From the sequence record PV040721.1: a DNA stretch of 44,228 bases. One strand, 5' to 3'. The first letter of the stretch is position 1. Each line of letters starts with the position of its first letter. The notes under the pieces are model-generated. The model made no database searches and was not told where the DNA came from. It was given only the letters and a program-made list of their open reading frames with translations. Source of the DNA: Escherichia phage BUCT825. Below are positions 1 to 44,228 of this stretch, piece by piece. The position numbers and the translations under genes were made by a program.

Positions 1-127
1 ATATACGGTACGTTGTACTTTTTAGCCAGACGCGCTGCCACTTTGCATGTAATCACAGCCTCTACCTGAAACGTTGGGTTTTTCTTCCGCTTTGTTTCGA
101 AATGCGCAGCCCCACTAACGGCTAAAT
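1..127. repeat. Left copy of exact 127-bp terminal duplication (identical to 44102-44228)
   Basis: Base-by-base identity of 1-127 with 44102-44228 read directly. Confidence 0.95.
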
Positions 128-356
128 CTGTGCAAGGAGGGAACGCAAAAATAATATCCGGCGCAACCTCGAAGTCGAATTTATTATCAATCCACGCGTT
201 TATATAGTGGATGTTCTCGTGTTCAACTTTTGCACCCAATCGCGCGTAGTCGCCATGGTCAGCGCCGTCGTAGTTGAAACAATAGCAAGTATGGCCTGCT
301 TCCGCCCACGGCTGGGCCATAAGGCCCGAACCGTCAAACAATGACCAGACAATCAT
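1..356 (-). CDS. DNA (cytosine-5)-methyltransferase-like protein, N-terminal part (gene continues at 43774-44228 across the circular junction; ~227 aa total)
   Basis: Minus-strand ATG at 354-356 overlapping upstream stop (ATGA); manual translation MIVWSLFDGSG...FAFPPCTDLAVSGA...ENPV reads open through position 1 into 44228; motifs resemble C5-MTase I (FxGxG), IV (PC), VI (ENV). Confidence 0.6.
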   Translation of the reverse strand, partial: MIVWSLFDGSGLMAQPWAEAGHTCYCFNYDGADHGDYARLGAKVEHENIHYINAWIDNKFDFEVAPDIIFAFPPCTDLAVSGAAHFETKRKKNPTFQVEAVITCKVAARLAKKYNVPY

Positions 357-544
357 TTCAGCACCAGAACTAACTCTTTACGCCCGAACGCCGTAACGTT
401 GCCTGTTACGTCTTCGATAACCAGTTTACCGTTCGACTCGACGTATACCGTATCAACGGCAACAGGACGACGGGTCTTAACGTTAAAAATCATGTCGCCA
501 GGTACGATGTCACGTGCTGGTTTGCGGTCATATTCGTGTTTCAT
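353..544 (-). CDS. hypothetical small protein (63 aa)
   Basis: ORF in operon context, start/stop overlap with downstream gene. Confidence 0.5.
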   Translation of the reverse strand: MKHEYDRKPARDIVPGDMIFNVKTRRPVAVDTVYVESNGKLVIEDVTGNVTAFGRKELVLVLK

Positions 545-574
545 TTCCCAATTCCTTATATTGTTGGTGTACGG

Positions 575-862
575 CTAACTATAATAGTTCGCTATTAGGT
601 CGTCAACCTGTTTAAACGACCCGACGACAAAAACATTCGCACCGCGTTTACGCATACGCGCGTGCTCACGTAACTGATGAGGGTCCGGCTTCGTGTTTTC
701 GTCTTTCTTCACCTCGACAAACCAGACTATGCCGTCTGGGAGAATTACCAGCAGGTCGGGGGCGCCCACTCTATTTTCGTATGACAATTTGCGTACGAGG
801 CCACCGAGGGCCTCGAATCGCTCTTTTGCGTATTTCTGTATTTTGCCCTCAGGCGTACTCAT
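575..862 (-). CDS. VRR-NUC domain nuclease (95 aa)
   Basis: Small protein with GAPDLLV...VEVK motif typical of VRR-NUC/PD-(D/E)XK fold. Confidence 0.65.
   Translation of the reverse strand: MSTPEGKIQKYAKERFEALGGLVRKLSYENRVGAPDLLVILPDGIVWFVEVKKDENTKPDPHQLREHARMRKRGANVFVVGSFKQVDDLIANYYS
578..606 (-). promoter_or_regulatory. sigma70-like promoter, minus strand (-35 TTGACG 601-606, 17-bp spacer, -10 TATAGT 578-583), inside the 3' end of the VRR-NUC gene
   Basis: Reverse complement reads TTGACG-N17-TATAGT; near-identical to elements at 3987-4015 and 7083-7111. Confidence 0.6.
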
Positions 863-947
863 CTACGCACCCTTCTCGTTTCGTATGCTCAACCCCACAG
901 CGAGGACAGATTCGGCAGTCTTCTTCGTAGAACCAGTAAATTTTCAT
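849..947 (-). CDS. putative 32-aa Cys-rich (zinc-ribbon-like) peptide
   Basis: Manual translation MKIYWFYEEDCRICPRCGVEHTKREGCVDEYA; start overlaps stop of upstream micro-ORF (ATGA), 3' end overlaps VRR-NUC start. Confidence 0.25.
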   Translation of the reverse strand: MKIYWFYEEDCRICPRCGVEHTKREGCVDEYA

Positions 948-1075
948 TCCAGCACCCACAGATAAATTGCGATGAACATGATCAATATGGCAACCATCAT
1001 GCCGTATTGACCCTCGTGACAGTAGACACCGGCGGCAAATCCAGCCAGTACCGCGATAATCAGTTTACTTGGCAT
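944..1075 (-). CDS. putative 43-aa hydrophobic membrane peptide
   Basis: Manual translation MPSKLIIAVLAGFAAGVYCHEGQYGMMVAILIMFIAIYLWVLE; start overlaps the polymerase stop. Confidence 0.25.
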   Translation of the reverse strand: MPSKLIIAVLAGFAAGVYCHEGQYGMMVAILIMFIAIYLWVLE

Positions 1076-3986: not shown

Positions 3987-4015
3987 ACTATAATAGCTAA
4001 CTATTCAGGTGTCAA
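3987..4015 (-). promoter_or_regulatory. sigma70-like promoter, minus strand (-35 TTGACA 4010-4015, -10 TATAGT 3987-3992)
   Basis: Reverse complement TTGACA-N17-TATAGT; conserved with 578-606 and 7083-7111. Confidence 0.65.
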
Positions 4016-7082: not shown

Positions 7083-7111
7083 ACTATAATAGCGAACTAT
7101 TCACATGTCAA
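7083..7111 (-). promoter_or_regulatory. sigma70-like promoter, minus strand (-35 TTGACA 7106-7111, -10 TATAGT 7083-7088), divergent from the Cro-like gene
   Basis: Reverse complement TTGACATGTGAATAGTTCGCTATTATAGT. Confidence 0.65.
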
Positions 7112-21329: not shown

Positions 21330-21339
21330 GTTCACCTAT

Positions 21340-21360
21340 AGCCCCGAAAGGGGCTTTCTT
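21340..21360 (+). terminator. Intrinsic terminator (AGCCCC-GAAA-GGGGCT followed by TTCTT)
   Basis: GNRA-type loop hairpin after portal gene. Confidence 0.65.
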
Positions 21361-21365
21361 ACAGT

Positions 21366-22442: not shown

Positions 22443-22903
22443 TGATGGGCTTTTTCAAAGTAACTGATGTACCGTCGCGTCGCGTAGTCCAGTACGCCCG
22501 TGTGCCTGGCTCCGGCGAGAACGTGGTATTTATTGAAGATGAAAGTGTACTGGGTGCGCCCGTAGACGATATGCCGTTTGCAGATAAAACCGGTATTGCG
22601 CTACCGGCGGCGGGCATGCTTTATGAGATTCAGTACCTGGCGGATGCTGGTGATGTGTATTTCTCCGTACAACCGCAGGACGCTGAACTGGCAGACGGCA
22701 GCGCAAATATCGCTGTCGAAGTTAAGGCGGGCAAAGCACCATATGCGCTGACCTGGTACAAAGACGGGAAGGAAGTGGTTAACGCCCCGGAAGAGGCTTT
22801 GTCTCTGACGGTTAATTCTGTTGGGGAATACTTCGTTAAAGTTACTGATGCCGATGGTGTAGAGGCCGTCAGTAAAGCGGCGAAGGTCACTAAGCCAGAA
22901 TAA
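22442..22903 (+). CDS. Ig-like domain protein (153 aa), possible capsid decoration/accessory protein
   Basis: C-terminal Ig-like pattern PYALTWYKDGKEV...VGEYFVKVTDADG. Confidence 0.55.
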   Translation: MMGFFKVTDVPSRRVVQYARVPGSGENVVFIEDESVLGAPVDDMPFADKTGIALPAAGMLYEIQYLADAGDVYFSVQPQDAELADGSANIAVEVKAGKAPYALTWYKDGKEVVNAPEEALSLTVNSVGEYFVKVTDADGVEAVSKAAKVTKPE

Positions 22904-22908
22904 ACTGA

Positions 22909-22929
22909 AGCCCCGAAAGGGGCTTTTTA
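22909..22929 (+). terminator. Intrinsic terminator (AGCCCC-GAAA-GGGGCT followed by TTTTAG)
   Basis: Same hairpin as at 21340. Confidence 0.65.
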
Positions 22930-22978
22930 GTGCCTGTGATTATTCCAGTTATTCCACTCAATTGTAAATGTTGGAATA

Positions 22979-28493: not shown

Positions 28494-29662
28494 ATATGGC
28501 TACAACTCCTTTTAAGGGCGCGAATACTGCGCAATTCTATGTGGCAGAAACTATCCCCGGCGTAACACCAAGTAACCCGGTCTGGTCGCCATTGCGCAAT
28601 ACGGGCGGCGTTCCCGCCATTACCCGCGACACGCTGACCTCCAACGAACTGGACGGCAGCCGTGAAACTACGTCCATCCGCACCGGTAACAAACAGGTTA
28701 GCGGGGAATACGCCATCGAGCTTAGCTCGAAAAGCCAGGACGACTGGTTAGCTGGGGCTTTAGGTTCTACGTGGCAATCCGGTGTTTCTCTGTCCGGTCT
28801 GTCTATTACCGTCGCCCCGGCGGGAAAGACGTTCACCCGTGCTGATGGCAGCTTTATTACCGACGGCGTTGAAGTGGGTGACCTGATTGCGTTTACCGAC
28901 TTAACGGGTGATAACGCCAAACCGTTTATTGTTACTGCAGTAACGGCTACGGTTGTTACTGGTGCGGGCATCCAACACACCCTGACCACCGAGACAAAAA
29001 CTAGTAAGGCTAAAACTGGCGACACGTTGGAAACCGGTAACGCGTGTAAGACGTTCTCTATCCTTACCTGGTACAAAGGCCAGTGCGGCGGTACTGACGC
29101 GTACACGTTAACCAAAGGCGTGGAAGTTTCTGGTTTTACCATCGAACAGGCTGTTAACGCGATGGTAACTGGCAGCTTCCCATTCATCGGTCGCAGTCAG
29201 GAGATTCTCACTACGCCGCCGACCGGTTCCAACTTCTCATCTGTTACTTTTGGTGATGAGCCGTTCTCTTCGGTTGACGTTTCCGTGTTCGACGGCTCTA
29301 CGCCGTTGCGTTGCGACAGTCTGACTATCACCAACGATAACAGCGCGTCCGCGCAGTTCGAACTTGGTAACACTAACGTAGCGTTTGTGGAGCGTAGCCG
29401 TGCAGCTAACACCTTCTCCATCTCCGGTAAGCTGTATGACATGGCGATGATTCAGAAGTTTATCAACGAGCAGCAGGTAGAGATTAACTCCATTCTGGCG
29501 GGGGTAAACGGGGCTATGTCTTTCAGTTTGAAACGTGCAGAGCTTACGGCGGTCACACCTGAGATTGGTGGCCCTGAGTCAATCACTCAGTCTATTGAAG
29601 GCCAGGCCACCGGCAACCAGTACCAGTCGTCTATCGTAATTCAACGTATTAGTTACGCGTAA
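28490..29662 (+). CDS. major tail (tube) protein, 390 aa
   Basis: Large Thr/Ser/Gly-rich protein followed by strong terminator; position before chaperone/TMP block. Confidence 0.55.
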   Translation: MNMATTPFKGANTAQFYVAETIPGVTPSNPVWSPLRNTGGVPAITRDTLTSNELDGSRETTSIRTGNKQVSGEYAIELSSKSQDDWLAGALGSTWQSGVSLSGLSITVAPAGKTFTRADGSFITDGVEVGDLIAFTDLTGDNAKPFIVTAVTATVVTGAGIQHTLTTETKTSKAKTGDTLETGNACKTFSILTWYKGQCGGTDAYTLTKGVEVSGFTIEQAVNAMVTGSFPFIGRSQEILTTPPTGSNFSSVTFGDEPFSSVDVSVFDGSTPLRCDSLTITNDNSASAQFELGNTNVAFVERSRAANTFSISGKLYDMAMIQKFINEQQVEINSILAGVNGAMSFSLKRAELTAVTPEIGGPESITQSIEGQATGNQYQSSIVIQRISYA

Positions 29663-29666
29663 AACT

Positions 29667-29690
29667 AAGGCCCCGAAAGGGGCCTTTTCC
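29667..29690. terminator. Bidirectional intrinsic terminator (AAGGCCCC-GAAA-GGGGCCTT) between convergent tail-tube and kinase genes
   Basis: 8-bp stem flanked by A-run upstream and T-run downstream; near-identical copy at 42199-42222. Confidence 0.7.
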
Positions 29691-30245
29691 CTACAAACCT
29701 AATTTTAAAGCAATGTCTATAACGTTCGATTTAACGTCACCTGGTATGATGTAGGTGTCGTAATCTTTTACACCATCAACGCCATACAGATAGCCACGGC
29801 TGTCCCCTTCAAACGTATAGCCGTCTCTGTGCAAGCGAACAATTCTTACGTCATGCCCAGCGGCGACGATAGGGACCACTTCACTGGCGAATCCACCGTC
29901 GGACACTACAAAAACTTCGTCGCCGTCAGGCAAGTTTTCAGCGAGATATTTACCGAAATAATCGCTGCCGAGGGCCGGTTTAATGAATTGTTCAGAGATA
30001 GCAATCATGAACCGACGGCGCGACAACCCATTAAGGAAACCTTCTGGCTTTTCTTTCCTGGCCCGGTCGTCGTAGCCGTCGAGAAACTCGTGGTAAGCAT
30101 CCGGGCCTAACGCAGCCATAGCGATATTGAACATCGGATTCTTGAAACTGGTAGTTCCTTTCGCAAAGCCCATTTCTACCAGTGCCATAGCAAGCGTGTC
30201 TTTCCCGCAACCCGCAGGGCCATTAAGAATAATTACCTTAGCCAT
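29691..30245 (-). CDS. P-loop nucleotide kinase, T4 Dnk-like (dNMP kinase family), 184 aa
   Basis: Walker A ILNGPAGCGKDT resembles T4 Dnk LSGVKRSGKDT; start overlaps HAD stop by 1 nt. Confidence 0.7.
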   Translation of the reverse strand: MAKVIILNGPAGCGKDTLAMALVEMGFAKGTTSFKNPMFNIAMAALGPDAYHEFLDGYDDRARKEKPEGFLNGLSRRRFMIAISEQFIKPALGSDYFGKYLAENLPDGDEVFVVSDGGFASEVVPIVAAGHDVRIVRLHRDGYTFEGDSRGYLYGVDGVKDYDTYIIPGDVKSNVIDIALKLGL

Positions 30246-33038: not shown

Positions 33039-35304
33039 TACCGCTAGCTTGATAGTACGAGTATCATCGACCGGCGTCGATAAAACAACATCACAACTGA
33101 ACGGGCTTACTAAAGCCGCAGGCGCTGCGGCTGCCGCCGTTGTCAGCCTGGAAACCGCTAAGCAGGTGTTCAGTGCACTGGTGGACTCCCAGCGCAACTT
33201 CGATAAGCTGAACTCCGGCCTCATCACAATGACCGGGAGCGCCGAGAACGCGGCTAAGGCTTTCAGCGTACTGCAGCAATTCGCAAAAGAAACCCCGTAC
33301 GGCCTCAATCAGGCGGTCGAGGGCTTCACTAAACTCGTAGCTCTTGGGCTAAACCCCGGCAAAGAGGCATTAATCTCCTACGGCAACACCGCGGCTGCTA
33401 TGGGTAAAGACCTTAATCAGATGATTGAGGCAGTTGCCGACGCCAGTACCTTTGAGTTTGAGCGACTAAAAGAGTTCGGCATCAAGTCGTCGCAACAGGC
33501 GGATACAGTTTCGTTCACGTTCCGCGGCGTAACGACCACGGTTAAAAAGAACTCCGAAGAGATTCAGAAATACCTGTTAAACATCGGCAACACCGATTTT
33601 GCCGGAGCGATGGAGACACGCTCTAAGACGCTAGACGGTCAGTTATCGAGCCTCGCCGACTCCTTCGATGGTCTTGTTCTTGCGGTAGCGCAATCCGGTT
33701 TTGGTGACGCGGTAGGCGAACAAGCGGCAACAGCGGAAGATGCTATTACAGCGCTCACCGACGCTATAGCGTCTAATGAGATAGCCGCCACGCTCCAGGA
33801 CTGGACGACACTGTTCAATGAGTCGTTCAAGTTTATTTCTGACGCCTTGAACGACCTGGCATATGACACCGAGGACAAATCCTCGGATATGTCCGACTCG
33901 CTGGGTACTATACCGGATGCTATCCGTGAGTGGCTGCCCGACATCCAGCAGACATTCCACGAGGTTATTGCGTGGTTCCAGCGCATTGACGATTACGCCG
34001 TAGCGTTAGGACAGACCCTTGCCGACGTGTTTGACCCGAGCAAAACGGCGGCGCTCACATTTAAAAACCTGACCGCAGAGGCCGACGCCGCATACGCCGC
34101 CAGCATAAAACGCGCAGAGGCGGAATCACAGGCCATTACAGACAGGTCTAAGCAGCGTAAGAAAGAAATTGAGGAACAGCGCAAGCAGTACGACGAGCGC
34201 AAGAAGCAAGAAATTGACTTAGCCCGCCTTGTTAATAAAAAGGGTGGAACTGGCAGCACCGGAAACGCCGACGATAAAGCAGCAAAAGCCGCCGCCAAGA
34301 AAGCAGAACAATTGCGGAATCAGGCGCAAGATTACCTCGACACTTTGGCCCGCCAGAACAACGATGAGTTAAAGGCTATCGACGCGCAGGAACAGCAGAA
34401 ACTGGCTAAGGCAAAAGAGTTCTACAGCCAGGGCGCGCTGTCACTGAAAGAATACGAGCAAGCAAAAACGGCTATTGTCCTAGAAGCAGGGCAAAAACGA
34501 CAAGATGAACTGGATAAACGCCAGAAAGAAGCCCAGGAAAAGCAACAGAAAGGTGACGACTTCATGGCTCAGATTATGGGCCAGAACGCTACTGAGCTTG
34601 AGCTTCTCGACATCCAGGAACAGCAGAAACTGGCGGTAGCGGATAAGTACCGCGAGCAGGGTTTGATTAGCGAGAAGCAGTATCAGGCCGCTCTTAACGC
34701 CATCAACGAGCAATACGCAACCAAGCGTGCCGATGCAACGGCAACGGCCTTTGGTAACATGGCCTCAAACATCGGGTCTGCGTTGGGTGAGGCTTCTGGC
34801 GCGTACAAGGCATTTGCTATCGTACAGGCCACCATAGCCACGTACACCGCGGCTATCGAGGCGTACAAGTCCACGGCGGCTATCCCCGTAGTTGGCCCGT
34901 TCCTGGCCCCTGTAGCCGCTGCCGCTGCCGTTGGTGCAGGTATGGCGCAGGTTTCCGCTATCCGGTCCGCGCGTGAACAGGGCGGACAGTTATCCGCAGG
35001 GCAGGCTTCCACCATCGCAGAACGCGGTAAACCGGAAGTTATCATGCCAGCGGGGGCATCGCGTGTTCGCACCGCACAGCAGATGAAAGAAATTATGGGG
35101 CAAAACGGGTCTTCTTCCGGCCCGTCTAATGTTACTATCGTAAACAACACGAGTTCTCAAATCGGCAACGTATCCACCGAGCAAGATGATGAAGGCCGTT
35201 TGCGTATCATCATCGAGGAGCAAGTTGCCGCATCTTTGCAGAACAGCAACAGTAAGATTAGCAAGGCCAGAAAGGCCACAAGAAACGCGCCGGGGTTTAA
35301 ATAA
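33031..35304 (+). CDS. tail tape measure protein (about 757 aa)
   Basis: Long Ala/Gln/Lys-rich coiled-coil protein with internal repeats and Gly-rich C-terminal region; ATG 33031 with SD GAAGGTAG. Confidence 0.8.
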   Translation: MADTASLIVRVSSTGVDKTTSQLNGLTKAAGAAAAAVVSLETAKQVFSALVDSQRNFDKLNSGLITMTGSAENAAKAFSVLQQFAKETPYGLNQAVEGFTKLVALGLNPGKEALISYGNTAAAMGKDLNQMIEAVADASTFEFERLKEFGIKSSQQADTVSFTFRGVTTTVKKNSEEIQKYLLNIGNTDFAGAMETRSKTLDGQLSSLADSFDGLVLAVAQSGFGDAVGEQAATAEDAITALTDAIASNEIAATLQDWTTLFNESFKFISDALNDLAYDTEDKSSDMSDSLGTIPDAIREWLPDIQQTFHEVIAWFQRIDDYAVALGQTLADVFDPSKTAALTFKNLTAEADAAYAASIKRAEAESQAITDRSKQRKKEIEEQRKQYDERKKQEIDLARLVNKKGGTGSTGNADDKAAKAAAKKAEQLRNQAQDYLDTLARQNNDELKAIDAQEQQKLAKAKEFYSQGALSLKEYEQAKTAIVLEAGQKRQDELDKRQKEAQEKQQKGDDFMAQIMGQNATELELLDIQEQQKLAVADKYREQGLISEKQYQAALNAINEQYATKRADATATAFGNMASNIGSALGEASGAYKAFAIVQATIATYTAAIEAYKSTAAIPVVGPFLAPVAAAAAVGAGMAQVSAIRSAREQGGQLSAGQASTIAERGKPEVIMPAGASRVRTAQQMKEIMGQNGSSSGPSNVTIVNNTSSQIGNVSTEQDDEGRLRIIIEEQVAASLQNSNSKISKARKATRNAPGFK
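34387..34634 (+). repeat. In-frame direct repeat in TMP gene: 20-bp exact copies CAGGAACAGCAGAAACTGGC at 34387-34406 and 34615-34634
   Basis: Copies 228 bp (76 codons) apart; encode repeated QEQQKLA peptide. Confidence 0.8.
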
Positions 35305-36681: not shown

Positions 36682-39227
36682 TCCTGCACTACACGCGAAA
36701 CGCTGATGGCGCTTTCGACCGTACAAAACACGTCGGGATGCCGATGGAGTTTGTCGTTAACCATATCCCTGACGGCGTGCCTGTGCGCGTCTACATCGGT
36801 GAGATTGGTGCTGATACGGATGTAACCGACGACTTCGATGCGCTTAAAGACGAAGACGCCGTGTACCACATTATTGAGGGCGCAGGTAGCGGGGCGCTTG
36901 GTGCTGTTAGTAAGGTGTTTGGTTTTATCCTTAAGCCAATCGCTAAGTTGTTCGGCCTGAACATGTCTGCAAACGCCAACTACACGGCGACTAATAACCA
37001 GACAACATCACCAAATAACAGCCTCACAGACCGCTCAAACAAGCCGCGTCCTTACGAGCGCTCTTATGACATCTGCGGGACCGTGCAGACAATCCCTAAT
37101 GACCTGATGCAGACGTATAAAGCGTTCGACAGTACCGGTAACTTGCTGGAGTACTCCTTTTATGACGCAGGGCGCGGACATCTGCATATTGCGGCGGATG
37201 GCGTCACAGAAGGCGACACCCTGATAAGCGATATCACAGGTTCCTCTGTTGCCGTGTATGCGCCGTATACGTCACCGAACAACACCACATCTCCGCAACT
37301 ACAAATCGGCGACGTCATTGCCCAGAAACTCTATGTGACATACTCCAACGACGACGTTGACGGTATTGTACTGAAAGCGCCAAACGACATTGGGGCCAAC
37401 CCAAGCTCCGGTGGAACCGCCAAACGTATTTCGACCACCGGCTACCTATATGACCCGTCGGGTGACTCTGCTTTTTCTGAGTTTCTTAGTGTTGGTGATG
37501 TCGCAGTGTTGAGCAATTTCGACGTTAAGGACGTCACTAACCTAAACGGCTCGTTTGAAGTTTTATACGTCGACGACTTTGAGGTTCGGTTGTACGTCGG
37601 GGATATAGGTAACTGGGGTAACCTTAATAACGGAGAGACTTACGCACTTACAGAGCGTTCGGATACGTTTATAGGCCCAAGCAACACCTATGACGTATCT
37701 CTTACGGACTGGTATTACATGGTGCGCGGAGAAGTCGACCGGGTTCTCGCTAACGTTGCCGGGCAGAACGGCCTCTACAAATACGACGGCGGCTATAACC
37801 GCACCAGCGTAACCGTAGAACTCCAGTACCAGATGATTGATTCTCAGCGCAACCCATTGAGCGATATCTACACGGTACAGGCTACGATTACTGGTAATAG
37901 CACGGATTACGTCGGTACGTCCATTTATGGGCAGTTGCCTACCGCATCGCGTTTCCGTGCCCGTATGCGCCGTGTAACGAATTTCGATAAAGACTACGAC
38001 GGCACGGTAAGCGACGAGATAACCTTCATCAACCTGTATGGGCAGTCTCTGGACACAACCCCGCACTACGGCAACCGGACGACAGTACATTGCGCCCGTA
38101 AACAGACACCGCGGGCCGCTAGTATTGACAACCCTGAACTGCGCATGATTGCGACTGAGATGTGTTACAAATACCTCGGAAATGGGGTATTCGATACTGT
38201 AATGACTCCGAACACGCAGGCCGTGCAATCTCTAATCCGACTGGCGCGCGACCCCGCGGTGGGTAATCTGGAGCTGACAACGGCAAATATGGATAAGTTA
38301 CTCGCTGTGCAGGAAGAAATTGAGTCCTATTTTGGTAGCGAATTAGCCGGACAATTCTGCTACACGTTCGACGACTACGACACCACGATGCAGGACATTG
38401 TTCAGACCATAGCGGAAGCCGTTTTCTGTACTGCGTACCGTAAAGGTGCGGATATTATGTTGCGATTCGACCGTCCGGTTGCTGGGCCTGAAATGGTGTT
38501 CACCCACCGCAGCAAAACTACCGGTACAGAGAAATGGACCCGCACGTTCAGCGATTCGACAACCTACGATAGCCTGTCGTTCTCGTACATCGACCCGGAT
38601 ACTAACGTACAGGAGACGATTTATATCCCGGAGGAACTCGGCGCAAATACCGAGGAATACGAATCGAAGGGCGTGCGCAACTACCAGCAGGCGTACTGGC
38701 TTGCGTGGCGTCGATATCAGCGCAATGCGTTAAGTAAAGTTGTCGTAGAGTTTGAAGCTACCGAAGAAGGTGCGCTCGCTACCCCAGGCGGTGTAATCAG
38801 CGTAGTTAAAGGCTCGCGTATTGCGCCACAGGACGGCTATGTTGCTGCCGTTAATGGGCTTACGCTGACACTGTCACAGCCGGTTGCGTTTACTCCGGGT
38901 GATGACCACTCCATCATCCTCAAGAAGCGCGATGGCTCTGTACAGAGTATCTCCGTTATCAAAGGAAGCCACGACCGCGAAGTGATTATGCTCTCCGCGC
39001 CGGAGGAAGCAATATACACGGGGAATAGCGCACTAAAAACTGAGTTTTCATTCGGCAACGAAGCAAGGCATAATGCACAGAAGATAGTTGTTTCTTCAAT
39101 CGACCCGGGCGACGACCGCACGGTCAAGATTACAGGCTACAACTATGATGAAGGTTTCTATAAATACGACGGCGTCGCGCCATACGGCAGCGGTTTCTCC
39201 GACGGATTCAGCAATGGTTTTAATTAA
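36672..39227 (+). CDS. tail tip / host-specificity-like protein (gpI/gpJ-like), 851 aa, TTG start in track
   Basis: Large protein after gpK-like gene; N-terminal IEGAGSGALGAVSKVFGFIL resembles tail assembly protein I motif. Confidence 0.55.
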   Translation: MAIILHYTRNADGAFDRTKHVGMPMEFVVNHIPDGVPVRVYIGEIGADTDVTDDFDALKDEDAVYHIIEGAGSGALGAVSKVFGFILKPIAKLFGLNMSANANYTATNNQTTSPNNSLTDRSNKPRPYERSYDICGTVQTIPNDLMQTYKAFDSTGNLLEYSFYDAGRGHLHIAADGVTEGDTLISDITGSSVAVYAPYTSPNNTTSPQLQIGDVIAQKLYVTYSNDDVDGIVLKAPNDIGANPSSGGTAKRISTTGYLYDPSGDSAFSEFLSVGDVAVLSNFDVKDVTNLNGSFEVLYVDDFEVRLYVGDIGNWGNLNNGETYALTERSDTFIGPSNTYDVSLTDWYYMVRGEVDRVLANVAGQNGLYKYDGGYNRTSVTVELQYQMIDSQRNPLSDIYTVQATITGNSTDYVGTSIYGQLPTASRFRARMRRVTNFDKDYDGTVSDEITFINLYGQSLDTTPHYGNRTTVHCARKQTPRAASIDNPELRMIATEMCYKYLGNGVFDTVMTPNTQAVQSLIRLARDPAVGNLELTTANMDKLLAVQEEIESYFGSELAGQFCYTFDDYDTTMQDIVQTIAEAVFCTAYRKGADIMLRFDRPVAGPEMVFTHRSKTTGTEKWTRTFSDSTTYDSLSFSYIDPDTNVQETIYIPEELGANTEEYESKGVRNYQQAYWLAWRRYQRNALSKVVVEFEATEEGALATPGGVISVVKGSRIAPQDGYVAAVNGLTLTLSQPVAFTPGDDHSIILKKRDGSVQSISVIKGSHDREVIMLSAPEEAIYTGNSALKTEFSFGNEARHNAQKIVVSSIDPGDDRTVKITGYNYDEGFYKYDGVAPYGSGFSDGFSNGFN

Positions 39228-39239
39228 AGAGGACTCTAT

Positions 39240-42194
39240 ATGTCAAGCGGATGCGGTGACGTTTTAAGCTTGGCGGATTTACAAACCGCCAAGAAACACC
39301 AGATTTTCGAAGCTGAGGTTATTACCGGTAAATCCGGCGGTGTTGCTACTGGTGCTGATATTGATTACGCGACCAACGCAGTTACAGGGCAGACACAGAA
39401 GACACTGCCGGCTGTGTTGCGTGACGCAGGTTTTAAACTGGCAGATTTTGATTTCACGTCAGGCGGTACACTATCCGCTAACGACCGAAACACCGCAGTT
39501 TTGTGGCCGTCGTCCTCTGGCGGTGACGGGGATTGGTACTATTGGTTGGGTGCTCTGCCAAAAATTATCCCAGCGTCATCTTCTCCGCAGTCCACCGGTG
39601 GCGTGGCAGATGGGGCGTGGCAACCCGTCGGGTCGGTCGTACTGAGGCAGCAAATATCTAATGTAAACGGTGCAACTCTGTACCCAGATTTACATATGGC
39701 GCGATGGAAGGACGAATACGACCTACGCGCATGGGGCGCCGTGGGCGACGGTGTAACTGATGATACTCAATCTATTTTTAATGTATTAGCAGCTTCTCCC
39801 AACAATTGGATTATAGACGGCAGGGGTTTGACTTATAAAGTTTCCCAATTACCGGACATTAGTAAATTTAAGAATGCTGCATTCGTTTACGAGCGCGTAG
39901 CCGGGCAACCGCTTACTTATGTAGCTGATGGCTTCTTTAACAGCTCACTAACTAAGGTGACGGATACCCCGTTCTACAACGCATGGACGCAGGATAAAAC
40001 TTTCGTCTACGACCATGTTATTTACGCCCCGTTTATGGCGGGCGAACGACATGGCGTTCAAAACTTACATGTAGCTTGGGTTCGCTCTGGTGACGACGGG
40101 CAGACTTGGTCAATGCCTGAGTGGTTGACTCCAATCCATGCCGACTATAATGCCAGTGTTTCTGCAGACAGAGTTAACTACCACTGCATGAGCATGGGTA
40201 CGTGCGGCAACCGATTATATGCAGTTATAGAAACCCGCTACTTGTCTAATATGCGGATGAAGAAGGCAGAACTTTGGTCACGCCCGATGCCGTATTTTAG
40301 ACACCCAACCGGCGGAATAACTATTAGTTCTGGCTCCACTACTGCTACCATTGTTATAGAAAATCATGGCCTAAAAGCAGGAGATGCGGTTAACTTCTCT
40401 AATACATCGGCAACTGGCGTATCGGGTAATATGACGGTTGCGTCTATAATTAACCGAAATACGTTCACTGTTACGCTCTCAAGCCCTGCGGGTTCCACCA
40501 TAAACAATGCGGGGGTTACCTGGAACTTCGCAACGCGATTCTGGGACAGCCCGTGGGAAATTACCGAATTGCCGGGGGTGGCATACTCCACTAACGCTGA
40601 TTTGTGTGTCACGGAGACACATAGTTTTGCGGTTATAGATGATACTAACTACACTATCGCTGTCGGCTACCACAACGGCGATGTGTCCCCTCGTCGTCTT
40701 GGCGTCTTGTATTTTAGTAACGTTTATGACAACCCAGGCGTATTCGTTCGTCGCACTGTCGCTCAGGCATACGCTGATAACGCTTCTGAACCGTGCGTGA
40801 AAAGTTATGGAGGTGTGCTCTACCTTACCACACGCGGCACATTACCTACTTCCCCTGGCTCTACACTGGCGATGAGCACCGATTCTGGGCAAAACTGGAG
40901 CTACTTGCGATTTCCGAACAATGTACATCACTCCAATCTTCCGTTCGCTAAAGTAGGTGACTATCTCTACATCTTTGGTACAGAACGTGCCTTTGGCGAG
41001 TGGGAAGGGGGTGCGCCGGACAGCCGCTATGAAGGTTCGTATCCACGGACCTTTATGTGCAAAGTTAATGTGTCGTCATGGCCTTCATCTTTAGATGATG
41101 TTCAGTGGTTTAATATTACCGACCAAATATACCAGGGCCATATCGTTAACTCTGCAGTCGGCGTCGGCTCTGTCTGTGTTAAAGATGGCTGGTTGTACTA
41201 TATCTTTGGAGGGGAAGACTTCTTCTCTCCCTGGAGCATAGGGGATAACAGTGCGAAGTTATGGTACAAACATGATGGGCACCCGGCTGACTTATATAGC
41301 TACCGGATAAAGATTGAAGACCACCCGTATGTGTCACGTGATTTCAAATACGGAGCAACTCCTAACCGTACACTACCTGTCGCAATGGGTGTAGATGGTG
41401 TCCGTCATGTAGAAGCACCTTTGACGTTTGACAATGATGTAAGCGTGTACTCCCTGCGTGTAACGGGGTTGGAATACGACGGCACACAACAGTCTGCCGT
41501 GCGTGCGCGGTTTGATGGTGATTACGGGCTGATTTCAAAAACAGTCCCGACTAAAACTCCATCTGCTCAACGACTGATTGTTAGTGGCGGTGATGGCGCA
41601 TCCAGTTCCGACGGTGCATTGCTGCAGCTGTACGGGTCGAACCATGCAACGCCTAACAGGGCTATTATGTATGCGTCAGGAGGCTTCTACTCATACGCCA
41701 ATTTCCTTCCTTACTTAGACTCGCAAGTGTCTTTAGGTTCGGCAAGTAATAGGTGGACTACGGTGTACGCGACCACCGGTACGATAAACACGTCTGACGG
41801 TACACTTAAGACGAACAAAGAGGAAATTGAGGAACAACTCCTTACCGCGTGGGAAGATATACATGTAATATCTTTTAAGTGGCTTGAAAGCCTAGCAACC
41901 AAAGGTGACACTGCAAGGATACACTTCGGTGTGATAGCCCAAGATGTGCGAGACATATTGGTCAAACATGGGCTTATGGAGAAAGATTCTACCGATTGTA
42001 AATATGCTTTCTTGTGCTACGACTCAATTGAAGCTGCGTATGATATTGATGAAGATGGACGGACTGTACAAGTATCCCCTCCCGGCGGCAGATGGGGGGT
42101 TAGGGCGGACCAGATGTTCTTCATAGAGATTGCGTATCAGCGTAAGAAGATGCGCGAGTTCGAGAAGAGGCTGGCAGCACTAGAAGATAAATAA
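39240..42194 (+). CDS. tailspike: endosialidase-like (sialidase Asp-boxes) with C-terminal intramolecular chaperone (peptidase S74-like) domain, 984 aa
   Basis: Asp-boxes SGDDGQTW and STDSGQNW; C-terminal NTSDGTLKTNKEEIEE auto-cleavage-type motif (Ser codon 41793-41795); SD AGAGGA. Confidence 0.75.
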   Translation: MSSGCGDVLSLADLQTAKKHQIFEAEVITGKSGGVATGADIDYATNAVTGQTQKTLPAVLRDAGFKLADFDFTSGGTLSANDRNTAVLWPSSSGGDGDWYYWLGALPKIIPASSSPQSTGGVADGAWQPVGSVVLRQQISNVNGATLYPDLHMARWKDEYDLRAWGAVGDGVTDDTQSIFNVLAASPNNWIIDGRGLTYKVSQLPDISKFKNAAFVYERVAGQPLTYVADGFFNSSLTKVTDTPFYNAWTQDKTFVYDHVIYAPFMAGERHGVQNLHVAWVRSGDDGQTWSMPEWLTPIHADYNASVSADRVNYHCMSMGTCGNRLYAVIETRYLSNMRMKKAELWSRPMPYFRHPTGGITISSGSTTATIVIENHGLKAGDAVNFSNTSATGVSGNMTVASIINRNTFTVTLSSPAGSTINNAGVTWNFATRFWDSPWEITELPGVAYSTNADLCVTETHSFAVIDDTNYTIAVGYHNGDVSPRRLGVLYFSNVYDNPGVFVRRTVAQAYADNASEPCVKSYGGVLYLTTRGTLPTSPGSTLAMSTDSGQNWSYLRFPNNVHHSNLPFAKVGDYLYIFGTERAFGEWEGGAPDSRYEGSYPRTFMCKVNVSSWPSSLDDVQWFNITDQIYQGHIVNSAVGVGSVCVKDGWLYYIFGGEDFFSPWSIGDNSAKLWYKHDGHPADLYSYRIKIEDHPYVSRDFKYGATPNRTLPVAMGVDGVRHVEAPLTFDNDVSVYSLRVTGLEYDGTQQSAVRARFDGDYGLISKTVPTKTPSAQRLIVSGGDGASSSDGALLQLYGSNHATPNRAIMYASGGFYSYANFLPYLDSQVSLGSASNRWTTVYATTGTINTSDGTLKTNKEEIEEQLLTAWEDIHVISFKWLESLATKGDTARIHFGVIAQDVRDILVKHGLMEKDSTDCKYAFLCYDSIEAAYDIDEDGRTVQVSPPGGRWGVRADQMFFIEIAYQRKKMREFEKRLAALEDK

Positions 42195-42198
42195 AACT

Positions 42199-42222
42199 AA
42201 GGCCCCAAACGGGGCCTTTTCT
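42199..42222. terminator. Bidirectional intrinsic terminator (AAGGCCCC-AAAC-GGGGCCTT), repeat of 29667-29690
   Basis: Same stem and flanks as 29667 with different loop. Confidence 0.7.
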
Positions 42223-42360
42223 CTACTCTTCCGATAACTTCTCCAGTACAAACGCCAGTTGCGCATTAGCGGCGTCTCTCTGTTGCCGTAGTCGCAGAAC
42301 CTCCTCTTCGAGTTCCTTGATACGTTTTTGCAATGCCGGAATCGGGGCTATGATGTTCAT
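42220..42360 (-). CDS. putative 46-aa coiled-coil peptide downstream of SNF2 helicase
   Basis: Manual translation MNIIAPIPALQKRIKELEEEVLRLRQQRDAANAQLAFVLEKLSEE; ATGA overlap with SNF2 stop. Confidence 0.3.
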
Positions 42361-43781
42361 TTCTTACCTCGTCTCTTCATGTAATTAAGCAACTCTTCCT
42401 GTACCGACTTCTTCTCATCAGTGCGCGCGGCAACAACTTCGTCCAGTGTGTCTTTAGCAACGATGTGATACAGAAACACCGGGCGTTCGTGCCCCGCCTG
42501 TTTCTGGCGAACTGGACCTATACGCTCCACAACCTGCAAATAGTGCTCAAGGTTCCAGCCTTGCGAGATGAATGCCAGATGATGTCCGCCGTCCTGTAAA
42601 TTCAAACCATGCCCGGCTGACGCAGGATGCACGCATAAGATTTCGATTTCCCCACGGTTCCACGCTTCCATCTGCTTATTACCCTTAGCGCCTTTTGCAA
42701 ACGCATGAGCCTGCGGGAATCGCTTAAGGATTCGTTCCAGTTCATGCTTGAACTGATAGGCCACCAGTAACGGCGCCCCCTGTAACTCCTCGACAATGGA
42801 CTCCAGCGCATCCAGTTTCGTGTCGTGCACTTTCTCCCAGTCTTTCGTTGCTTCTCCGTCTGGCCCCGACACATATACGGCACCGGATGCAATCTGCAAA
42901 CACTTCGACGTCTTCGCCGCGGCGTTAGCCGCTTCAACCTCTCCGCTTTCCAGTTCCGCGAATAACTTTTCCTCCATATCTATGTATGCCTGACGCGCTT
43001 TCTTCGGCAGGTCGATTTCAACCGGTACGATAATAGGCGCTTCACAACCGAACCACTCGGCAGCGTCAATCGTTAGACTAATGTCCTTCATCTTCTGATG
43101 AATCTCATTGTCCGCGCCAGGGCGCGCGTGATATTCACGGGCCATCGCTGACTTACCTTTCTGTACCGAGTTAAACCAGCGGTCCGTGAACGCCGTGTAT
43201 GAAGAACCGAGGCGCTCGCCTGCGTCGATAAACCAGTTCTGCCCCCACAAGTCCTTGAGGCCGTTTGGCGACGGGGTGCCAGTAAGGTTGATGAAGCGCT
43301 TAACCTTACCGAACGCCACTTTACTAAGCGCCTTTGCCCGCTTGCTTCCGCCAGAACGGCTGCGGAATGATTTCAGCTTCGTGCTTTCATCGGCAACGAT
43401 AACCGTAAAAGGCCAGTCGTCTTTGCCGTAGTAGTCAATCAGCCACTCGATAACTTCGTAGTTGGTGCATACCACGTTAGCATCTGACTCCAGCGCAGCT
43501 ATGCGGCGCTTCTCTGGACCTGTCGCATCGACTACACTCAGGCAAGGAAAGTTCCATTTCTCTTGTTCTGCGGGCCATGTGCCGGATGCAACACGTAACG
43601 GGGCTAGGATTAACACGCGGTCCTCTTCCGTAAGCTGCCCGTTGCGGAACAAGCGGTTTAAAGTCCATAGGACGCTGCCCGTCTTCCCGGCACCCATGCT
43701 TGCCCATATGTTGCAGCGATGATGCCGCAGCATGAACGAGGTCATGAGCTTCTGGTACTCTCGACGGATAAATTTAGACAT
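42357..43781 (-). CDS. SNF2-family DEAD/DEAH-box helicase, 474 aa
   Basis: Walker A SMGAGKTG, motif II VADESTKLK, motif III LTGTPSPN. Confidence 0.85.
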   Translation of the reverse strand: MSKFIRREYQKLMTSFMLRHHRCNIWASMGAGKTGSVLWTLNRLFRNGQLTEEDRVLILAPLRVASGTWPAEQEKWNFPCLSVVDATGPEKRRIAALESDANVVCTNYEVIEWLIDYYGKDDWPFTVIVADESTKLKSFRSRSGGSKRAKALSKVAFGKVKRFINLTGTPSPNGLKDLWGQNWFIDAGERLGSSYTAFTDRWFNSVQKGKSAMAREYHARPGADNEIHQKMKDISLTIDAAEWFGCEAPIIVPVEIDLPKKARQAYIDMEEKLFAELESGEVEAANAAAKTSKCLQIASGAVYVSGPDGEATKDWEKVHDTKLDALESIVEELQGAPLLVAYQFKHELERILKRFPQAHAFAKGAKGNKQMEAWNRGEIEILCVHPASAGHGLNLQDGGHHLAFISQGWNLEHYLQVVERIGPVRQKQAGHERPVFLYHIVAKDTLDEVVAARTDEKKSVQEELLNYMKRRGKK

Positions 43782-44228
43782 GATTAGCCTCGTAAACTGC
43801 TTTTGCGAAACCCCTCGGAGTAAGGCTACGGATTGTTTTTGTCCGCACTGATTTACCGCCTAATTTATTGTGTTGGTCAGAGTAACCGTCAGCCACGGCG
43901 ACACATGATTTAACAGGCATCACAAAACCGTTACCCGCCCAAATACATGTCTTCTTAGGGTACGCGTCCCGTGGTTTTATGTATTCAGAGAACATTGGGT
44001 GCGTGTCGTTTTCCGGTAGATAACCGCCGTATTCGTAGGGATTGAACACATAGTCGGGCCTACGCCATAAAGACGAAAGAACGCTAACAGGGTTCTCAAT
44101 CATATACGGTACGTTGTACTTTTTAGCCAGACGCGCTGCCACTTTGCATGTAATCACAGCCTCTACCTGAAACGTTGGGTTTTTCTTCCGCTTTGTTTCG
44201 AAATGCGCAGCCCCACTAACGGCTAAAT
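43774..44228 (-). CDS. DNA (cytosine-5)-methyltransferase-like protein, C-terminal part (N-terminal part at 1-356 across circular junction)
   Basis: Track ORF 43774-44157 is open upstream to the window edge; frame continues into 128-356; contains ENPV and GNGFVMPV motifs. Confidence 0.6.
   Translation of the reverse strand, partial: LAVSGAAHFETKRKKNPTFQVEAVITCKVAARLAKKYNVPYMIENPVSVLSSLWRRPDYVFNPYEYGGYLPENDTHPMFSEYIKPRDAYPKKTCIWAGNGFVMPVKSCVAVADGYSDQHNKLGGKSVRTKTIRSLTPRGFAKAVYEANHV
44102..44228. repeat. Right copy of exact 127-bp terminal duplication
   Basis: Identical to 1-127; implies circularised/permuted assembly or direct terminal repeat. Confidence 0.95.

Follow-up and report, generated by a model that had tools for sequence, protein, structure and literature searches.

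The closest relatives of the tailspike described here have been studied in several phages. ORF40 of phage JSSK01 (WFD55387.1; OQ442786), produced as a recombinant protein, removes the K1 capsule, forms a dose-dependent halo and agglutinates K1 cells, and it has been immunolocalised to the tail ends (PMC11641727). The recombinant protein had a mass of about 113 kDa with its tags, which equals the unprocessed predicted size; cleavage was not discussed in that work (PMC11641727). The enzyme of phage K1H was 93 kDa after proteolysis and degraded purified K1 capsule in vitro (PMC5696595). The endo-N-acetylneuraminidase of phage 63D (BAA32990.1; AB015437; Machida et al. 2000) is described as a tetramer, not a trimer, as relayed in a review that cites Machida et al. 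Among more distant systems, phi92 gp143 (PDB 4HIZ) has a solved crystal structure and is reported to hydrolyse polysialic acid of both the K1 and the K92 type (phi92 record; 2026 paper). The mechanistic reference is endoNF of phage K1F (gp17; PDB 1V0E, 3GVL, 3GW6), whose self-cleavage is described as requiring R897 and the Ser911/Lys916 dyad (PMC8326128).

Here we describe the tailspike gene of Escherichia phage BUCT825 (PV040721.1). The 44,228 nucleotides analysed, hereafter the window, are a complete Kagunavirus genome and are 89–95% identical to Escherichia Kagunaviruses over their whole length. The product is almost certainly an endo-α-2,8-sialidase (GH58) of the 63D/K1G/K1H/JSSK01 type, serving as the receptor-destroying tailspike of a Kagunavirus (siphovirus, Guernseyvirinae) that depends on the K1 capsule. 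The gene is already known to the databases and is not a mere prediction.

Gene context and domain architecture

In the ORF reading of the window, the tailspike is encoded by a single frame running from ATG to TAA (Table 1). It is preceded by the Shine-Dalgarno-like element AAAGAGGA, and the 63D record AB015437 carries an annotated ribosome-binding site at the equivalent position. The gene closes the tail operon; before it come the genes for the tape measure, a DUF1833 protein and the large J-like tail-tip protein, and the same gene order surrounds the tailspike in JSSK01 and other Kagunaviruses. The 851-aa tail protein encoded upstream gave no Pfam match and is named from the annotations 'tip attachment protein J' and 'tail protein' in Schulenburg and JSSK01. 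Between the + strand tail genes and the converging minus-strand replication genes lies an intrinsic-terminator hairpin, and phage Schulenburg has terminators annotated on both strands at this spot. The hairpin is also a member of a repeated hairpin family (D2). Neither tRNAs nor Rfam families were found when the entire window was scanned.

Table 1. Features of the BUCT825 tailspike locus (positions in the window)
Feature	Position	Strand	Details
Ribosome-binding site AAAGAGGA, Shine-Dalgarno-like	39227..39234	+	5 nt 5' of ATG; read from sequence
Endosialidase tailspike precursor gene	39240..42194	+	984 aa, 108.1 kDa; stop codon included
N-terminal tail-attachment module	39240..39659	+	aa 1–140; Tail_spike_N (PF18668) match aa 97–131
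Linker, attachment module to endosialidase module	39660..39734	+	aa 141–165
Endosialidase N-terminal extension, PF12218 (End_N_terminal)	39738..39938	+	aa 167–233, E = 3.6e-38
Catalytic six-bladed β-propeller, PF12217 (End_beta_propel)	39939..41318	+	aa 234–693, E = 4e-224
Asp-box 1, SGDDGQTW	40086..40109	+	aa 283–290; aligned to K1F endoNF Asp-box, residue 362
β-barrel (lectin-like) domain, PF12195 (End_beta_barrel)	40290..40538	+	aa 351–433, E = 1.3e-41; nested in PF12217
Asp-box 2, STDSGQNW	40875..40898	+	aa 546–553; aligned to K1F endoNF Asp-box, residue 610
Stalk / triple-β-helix domain, PF12219 (End_tail_spike)	41319..41792	+	aa 694–851, E = 3.7e-75
C-terminal intramolecular chaperone domain, Peptidase_S74	41793..42191	+	aa 852–984, 133 aa, 15.3 kDa
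Ser852 codon TCT, predicted nucleophile, first residue of released domain	41793..41795	+	aligned with endoNF Ser911
Lys857, predicted partner of Ser852	41808–41810	+	aligned with endoNF Lys916
Bidirectional intrinsic-terminator hairpin AAGGCCCC-AAAC-GGGGCCTT	42199..42218		T-rich runs on both strands

A Pfam search of the protein matched four of four endosialidase domains (PF12218, PF12217, PF12195 and PF12219) together with Peptidase_S74, in the canonical order. The PF12217 match spans the full profile (1–367), and PF13884 (Peptidase_S74) matches aa 852–912 (E = 1.4e-13) directly after PF12219. Among solved structures, the phi92 endosialidase (4hiz, an entry with three chains) aligns with residues 166–851 at E = 0, its chain ending at the residue aligned with T851. 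K1F endoNF (1v0e and 3gvl) matches at E ~ 1e-231, and the endoNF stalk and chaperone domain (3gw6) matches residues 756–984. With values of 4e-224 for End_beta_propel and 0 for 4hiz, the endosialidase match lies far beyond chance. The preliminary description had deduced a sialidase β-propeller from two Asp-boxes; both are present at the sites given there and align with endoNF Asp-boxes, and the four Pfam domains and the matches to 4hiz, 1v0e and 3gvl bear out the fold. The protein thus combines sequence features that mark the endosialidase family: an Asp-box propeller, an inserted β-barrel followed by a stalk, and equivalents of the endoNF active site. The exosialidase FRIP motif is not discriminating here, because it is absent from the BUCT825 tailspike and from K1F alike.

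The N-terminal 140 residues share 66–80% amino acid identity with the tailspikes of Schulenburg, K-01 and GZMU_E2010, and beyond aa 140 there is no similarity to these proteins. At the nucleotide level, megablast matches to these non-K1 Kagunaviruses are confined to nt 1–393 of the gene. Residues 1–140 are therefore a genus-wide tail-attachment module, common to Kagunavirus tailspikes with other enzymatic domains. Both this conserved module and the position as last tail-operon gene after a J-like protein are those of a Kagunavirus tailspike. We also considered a different N-terminus for XY1 and G AB-2017, where megablast covered only nt 406–2955 and 1–2159 of the gene, respectively. This was rejected: the partial matches abut the record ends, so the gene probably spans those ends.

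Catalytic residues and predicted cleavage site

The active-site equivalents of endoNF E581, R596 and R647 are E517, R532 and R583, which are kept in two independent alignments. We take Glu581, Arg596 and Arg647 of endoNF to be the functionally critical set of its active site. Further equivalents are Y246 and H271, corresponding to endoNF Y325 and H350. In the stalk, R838 corresponds to endoNF R897, and the stalk-site residues R778 and S789 are present. Leu794 stands in place of the endoNF stalk binding-site residue Q853, and a Leu is also found at this position in 63D and phi92.

The chaperone domain directly follows the triple-β-helix stalk, as expected of a Peptidase_S74 domain, and a Ser-x4-Lys dyad and the stalk Arg accompany it. 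Ser852 and Lys857 align with Ser911 and Lys916 of endoNF, and 3gw6 matches this part of the protein, which supports a C-terminal chaperone domain of the self-cleaving type, as had been proposed. The codon that the preliminary description had singled out for the cleavage Ser indeed encodes residue 852. Its estimate of about 130 C-terminal residues also held, with 133 aa counted from S852; the leading 'NT' of the motif it quoted as the start of the domain, in contrast, is part of the mature spike, NTSDGTLKTNKEEIEE beginning at aa 850 (nt 41787). The mat_peptide boundaries of K1F (T910|S911) and phi92 (T756|S757) in GenBank align with T851|S852. A cut at T851-S852 is thus predicted to yield an 851-aa, 92.8-kDa mature spike, where about 850 aa had been expected, and a 15.3-kDa chaperone. 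The computed mature mass compares with 93 kDa for the K1H product (PMC5696595). Besides 3gw6, the chaperone domain matches a phage neck appendage protein (3gud), the T5 L-shaped tail fibre (4uw8) and 7y5s, in agreement with the suggested likeness to some long tail fibres.

Comparison with related endosialidases

JSSK01 ORF40 is likewise 984 aa long and is 99.5% identical in amino acid and 99.4% in nucleotide sequence, with an equal domain set and the same genome position, after the J-like tail protein and before converging helicase genes. The five substitutions between the two (A592E, L712I, A820D, S836G and A933V) all fall outside the mapped catalytic, binding and cleavage positions. The flanking JSSK01 genome is only about 90–97% identical to the BUCT825 window, and downstream it has a further 516-bp ORF, a TOPRIM 'primase', with no counterpart in the window. 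The 63D enzyme (984 aa, 98.1% amino acid identity) differs by 19 substitutions, none at a mapped functional residue. K1G and K1H ('tailspike 63D sialidase'; 95–96%) and about 15 other K1 Kagunaviruses show 95–97% nucleotide identity, and enzymes of the 63D/K1G/K1H type have an architecture and a cleavage motif identical to those of the BUCT825 tailspike. Over the catalytic part, the K1H enzyme is 97.4% identical.

These relationships fit the host and the substrate named in the preliminary description. The closest relatives, JSSK01, K1G, K1H and the Smith-Huggins O18:K1 phages, were isolated on E. coli K1, and the endosialidase domains together with the activity of the 99.5%-identical JSSK01 ORF40 (PMC11641727) argue for the predicted K1 capsule depolymerase. 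K1 capsule removal, halo formation, a tail-tip site, 93-kDa processing and in vitro polysialic acid degradation have all been demonstrated by others on proteins that are 97–99.5% identical. The capsule, halo and processing experiments proposed earlier are already published for the near-identical JSSK01 and K1H proteins (PMC11641727, PMC5696595).

After the Kagunavirus enzymes, the nearest catalytic module is that of the phi92/phAPEC8 group. phi92 gp143 has the same fold, 79% identity over aa 166–851 and 83% over the propeller, and an identical cleavage site (T|SDGTLKT). Its N-terminal anchor is of a different, myovirus baseplate type, with similarity starting at BUCT825 aa 133, and its chaperone domain is 29 aa longer than the 133 aa found here. 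K1F endoNF, with 48–51% identity overall, shares the domain order, the E/R/R set, both Asp-boxes, the R897 equivalent, the Ser-Lys dyad and a homologous boundary between mature and C-terminal parts. Unlike the BUCT825 protein, it carries a T7-type N-terminal anchor, and its chaperone domain measures 154 aa versus 133 aa. The gap in the chaperone domain relative to K1F and phi92 (about 21–29 residues) falls in the region of the long, stalk-contacting tentacle of endoNF. If this gap corresponds to a missing tentacle, triple-β-helix folding would not fully require the tentacle.

Alternative interpretations

The substrate could be broader or shifted, such that the enzyme cuts the alternating α-2,8/α-2,9 polysialic acid of E. 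coli K92 besides K1, as in phi92, and the hosts are not limited to K1 alone. We consider this possible, if rather doubtful. It draws on the closeness of the catalytic module to phi92/phAPEC8 described above, on the hydrolysis of both polymers described for phi92 gp143, and on the stalk-site Leu, which is shared with phi92 where endoNF has Gln. However, K1 strains were the isolation hosts of all phages that supply the near-identical enzymes, and the literature examined yielded no report of K92 activity for 63D-type enzymes. Moreover, the JSSK01 authors suggest that resistant, non-agglutinated kps-PCR-positive strains may be K92 or K24 and not true K1. Dual activity refines the K1 endosialidase reading and does not contradict it; were it present, capsules of the K92 type would be open to attack by K1 Kagunaviruses too.

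Laboratory mutants of endosialidases are known that have lost activity but retain polysialic acid binding. The tailspike could likewise lack catalysis and serve for binding only, or be a fibre from which the C-terminal domain is not removed; it would then have the fold without depolymerase activity or without processing. The grounds for such a protein are generic, apart from the full-length-size band of JSSK01 (PMC11641727), and we judge it very improbable: the mapped catalytic residues, the Ser-Lys dyad and R838 are all intact, the 99.5%-identical JSSK01 protein strips capsule and makes halos (PMC11641727), and the K1H enzyme is both processed to 93 kDa and active in vitro (PMC5696595). A further reading places the target on another bacterium with a polysialic acid capsule, such as Mannheimia haemolytica A2 or Neisseria meningitidis group B, instead of on E. 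coli. The capsule of M. haemolytica A2 is chemically the same α-2,8 polymer, and endosialidase homologues of about 36% identity occur in M. haemolytica A2 phages. Such a host is nevertheless scarcely credible, as the whole window is 89–95% identical to Escherichia Kagunaviruses, the N-terminal anchor is of the Kagunavirus type and every match above 95% identity is to an E. coli phage. An inactive enzyme, a protein that is not processed and a host outside E. coli were thus all rejected on the intact residues, the active near-identical proteins and the Escherichia Kagunavirus genome. Nothing in the sequence speaks against the K1 endosialidase reading.

Proposed mechanism and significance

By homology to endoNF, we infer a trimeric state, a Ser-Lys mechanism and a chaperone role for the BUCT825 tailspike. 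The C-terminal intramolecular chaperone domain would bring three 984-aa precursors together. Once the stalk has folded, Ser852, activated by Lys857 and helped by the stalk residue Arg838, would cut T851-S852, freeing the 15-kDa chaperone and leaving a very stable trimer of 92.8-kDa chains. The N-terminal 140 residues would dock this trimer on the tail tip. There, the β-propeller (E517, R532, R583) would cleave the capsular polysialic acid of E. coli K1, the polymer being gripped by the β-barrel and stalk sites, and capsule cleavage would let the phage tunnel to the outer membrane.

There is no new biology in this locus: the enzyme family, its structure, the self-cleaving chaperone and the 63D subtype are all described and tested in earlier publications. 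The case illustrates that motif reading alone, from Asp-boxes and an S-x4-K cleavage motif, can call substrate and processing site correctly. The practical value is small. The genome joins the candidates for therapy with K1 phages or depolymerases and for the typing of K1 strains. For the phage itself, the gene settles the host, E. coli K1 with its polysialic acid capsule, which includes neonatal meningitis, UPEC and APEC lineages.

Domain architecture of the tailspike

The tailspike gene is one uninterrupted ORF whose product carries the full endosialidase domain set in canonical order. Among solved structures, the phi92 endosialidase 4hiz is the top match (E = 0, aa 166-851), its chain ending in ...GTINT with the last residue aligned to T851. 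It is followed by structures of endoNF, the endosialidase of phage K1F (1v0e and 3gvl, E ~ 1e-231), while the endoNF stalk and chaperone structure 3gw6 matches aa 756-984. The protein shows every defining feature that can be judged from sequence, whether of phage endosialidases as a family (GH58), the Peptidase S74 chaperone domain or a Kagunavirus tailspike.

The preliminary description had proposed two Asp-boxes, and both were found, in the same alignment columns as the two Asp-boxes of endoNF. It had also placed a Ser codon in a motif opening a C-terminal piece of about 130 residues; codon and piece are where it put them. The likeness it saw to long tail fibres holds as well, since matches to the chaperone part include the T5 L-shaped tail fibre (4uw8) and the neck appendage protein of a phage (3gud). 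Its observation is thus confirmed in all details, and its reasoning was correct.

Features of the tailspike and the surrounding genome
Feature	Window (nt)	Tailspike (aa)	Strand	Remarks
Shine-Dalgarno-like AAAGAGGA	5 nt upstream of ATG		+	read from sequence
Tailspike ORF	39240-42194	1-984	+	984 codons, ATG start, TAA stop
End_N_terminal		167-233		Pfam E = 3.6e-38
End_beta_propel		234-693		Pfam E = 4e-224, full-length profile match
Asp-box 1, SGDDGQTW	40086-40109	283-290	+	aligned to K1F residue 362
End_beta_barrel		351-433		Pfam E = 1.3e-41, nested in propeller
Asp-box 2, STDSGQNW	40875-40898	546-553	+	aligned to K1F residue 610
End_tail_spike		694-851		Pfam E = 3.7e-75
NTSDGTLKTNKEEIEE		from 850		contains S852
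S852 codon, TCT	41793-41795	852
Peptidase_S74, 'Chaperone of endosialidase'		852-912		Pfam E = 1.4e-13
C-terminal piece	41793-42191	852-984		133 aa
TTGACA-N17-TATAGT	578-606, 3987-4015, 7083-7111		-	near-consensus sigma-70 family
Related promoter motif	7131, 10586, 12277, 15994, 22987, 32114
Hairpin family	21331-21365, 22900-22934, 29660-29694, 42192-42226			last copy directly after tailspike gene
Missing TOPRIM ORF, junction	42357-42360			beside helicase gene
Methyltransferase-equivalent ORF	43774-44157 and beyond		-	upstream of helicase
Direct repeat, 127 nt	1-127, 44102-44228			exact

Catalysis and predicted self-cleavage

Residue mapping showed that the catalytic set is wholly conserved, endoNF E581, R596 and R647 corresponding to E517, R532 and R583, and Y325 and H350 to Y246 and H271. 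In the stalk binding site, R837 and S848 of endoNF correspond to R778 and S789, and Q853 to L794, a Leu also found in 63D and phi92. The cleavage residues are intact: T910|S911 maps to T851|S852, the stalk arginine R897 to R838 and K916 to K857, S911 and K916 being described as the indispensable Ser-Lys dyad of endoNF (PMC8326128). In the curated mat_peptide features of K1F (AM084414) and phi92 (FR775895), the C-terminal domain begins exactly at the Ser aligned to S852. The computed mass of the precursor is 108.1 kDa, with a predicted mature chain of 92.8 kDa and a predicted released domain of 15.3 kDa.

The chaperone domain comprises 133 aa here and in 63D, compared with 154 aa in K1F and 162 aa in phi92. 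The difference appears as an alignment gap of about 21-29 residues in mid-domain, after about aa 935, a region in which endoNF has a long stalk-contacting tentacle; the position of the gap is taken from the alignment. As the K1H enzyme is processed, the shorter domain is probably still functional. It would drive trimerisation and stalk folding, followed by self-cleavage between T851 and S852. The trimer would then dock on the tail tip through its N-terminal module, and the propeller would depolymerise polysialic acid held by the lectin-like barrel and the stalk.

Activity and substrate range

Laboratory evidence exists for near-identical proteins. ORF40 of phage JSSK01 shares 979 of 984 residues with the tailspike (99.5%), and the 63D endoN 965 of 984. 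Recombinant ORF40 removed the capsule of a K1 strain, as seen by TEM, gave dose-dependent halos and specifically agglutinated K1 strains, and antibodies located ORF40 at the distal tail ends; the tagged protein was shown at its full predicted size of about 113 kDa, with processing left undiscussed (PMC11641727). The K1H enzyme ran at 93 kDa 'after proteolysis'; in vitro it broke down purified K1 capsule, and it also rescued mice (PMC5696595). In essence, the tests suggested in the preliminary description have therefore already been performed on these proteins, with the predicted outcomes. For the 63D enzyme, a review cites a report of a tetramer; homologous crystal structures are trimers.

Essentially nothing supports a dead enzyme or a host other than E. 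coli. Activity on the K92 polymer in addition to K1 is possible, because phi92 gp143, the nearest relative of the catalytic module outside the Kagunaviruses, is reported to cut both polymers. However, the JSSK01 authors suggested that some JSSK01-resistant strains may be K92 or K24 and not true K1, and we regard K92 activity as unlikely.

Tail attachment and genome setting

Residues 1-140 share 66-80% identity with the N-termini of three Kagunavirus tailspikes, although the rest of those proteins is unrelated. They therefore constitute the genus-specific tail-attachment module, and the endosialidase follows it as an exchangeable cassette. Likeness to phi92 gp143 begins only at aa 133. Outside the tailspike gene, the remaining 41 kb shares 89-95% identity with Kagunavirus genomes. 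Genes for tape measure, DUF1833, J-like tail-tip protein and tailspike are followed by converging replication genes, and the local order is the same in JSSK01, Schulenburg, K-01 and GZMU_E2010. Such an end repeat usually marks a circular contig written with k-mer overlap, indicating a complete phage genome of 44,101 unique bp; the copy at the terminus stems from the assembly and is no biological terminal repeat.

Between nt 33240 and 44228 of the window, the tailspike gene is 99.4% identical to JSSK01. The tail genes upstream of it are 92-98% identical to that phage in most 500-nt segments, a figure that drops to about 90% across the region of the methyltransferase and the helicase that neighbours the tailspike. 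Nucleotides 1-25000 best match another phage, XY1 (95%). Judged by these identities, the genome is a mosaic, as would fit a receptor-binding cassette that was recently exchanged or is under strong selection.

JSSK01 has a 516-bp ORF annotated 'DNA primase' (TOPRIM; L001 9118-9633 in the compared JSSK01 sequence) between a 45-aa ORF and the SNF2-type helicase. This ORF is precisely missing here, and Schulenburg has an HNH endonuclease in its place; the site appears to be a slot of variable content, perhaps for mobile genes. The ORF equivalent to the JSSK01 gene annotated DNA cytosine methyltransferase extends into the terminal repeat and wraps the circular junction; its listed 127-aa fragment had no Pfam match.

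The three TTGACA-N17-TATAGT sites are the best promoter-like matches within the first 13 kb, and their spacers contain the palindrome AATAG-N4-CTATT. Nine copies of the motif TAATAGNNNACTATTCAC were counted against 0.9 expected. Most of the sites checked fall between listed ORFs, and the family may represent early promoters that incorporate an operator for a dimeric regulator. The GC-rich hairpins, (A/G)GCCCC-GAAA-GGGGC(C/T) with flanking T runs, look like intrinsic terminators. The copy after the tailspike gene is 91% alike to that at 29660 over 35 nt, and both look bidirectional.

Relatives of the tailspike gene

By megablast, 20 GenBank phage records match at least 80% of the tailspike gene. 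They include JSSK01 (99.4%; host E. coli K1; annotated endo-N-acetylneuraminidase), the original 63D gene AB015437 (96.6%), K1G and K1H (95-96%; 'tailspike 63D sialidase'), the Smith-Huggins O18:K1 phages and several further Kagunavirus isolates. Remoter endosialidases fall into discrete identity bands: 79% for phAPEC8 and phi92, 68% for one podovirus, 50-52% for the K1F, K1E and K1-5 types and about 36% for Mannheimia phages. The gene is already known and brings nothing new: the first cloning of this gene, of which the window carries an allele, dates from around 2000, and a protein with which its product shares 99.5% identity was characterised in 2024.
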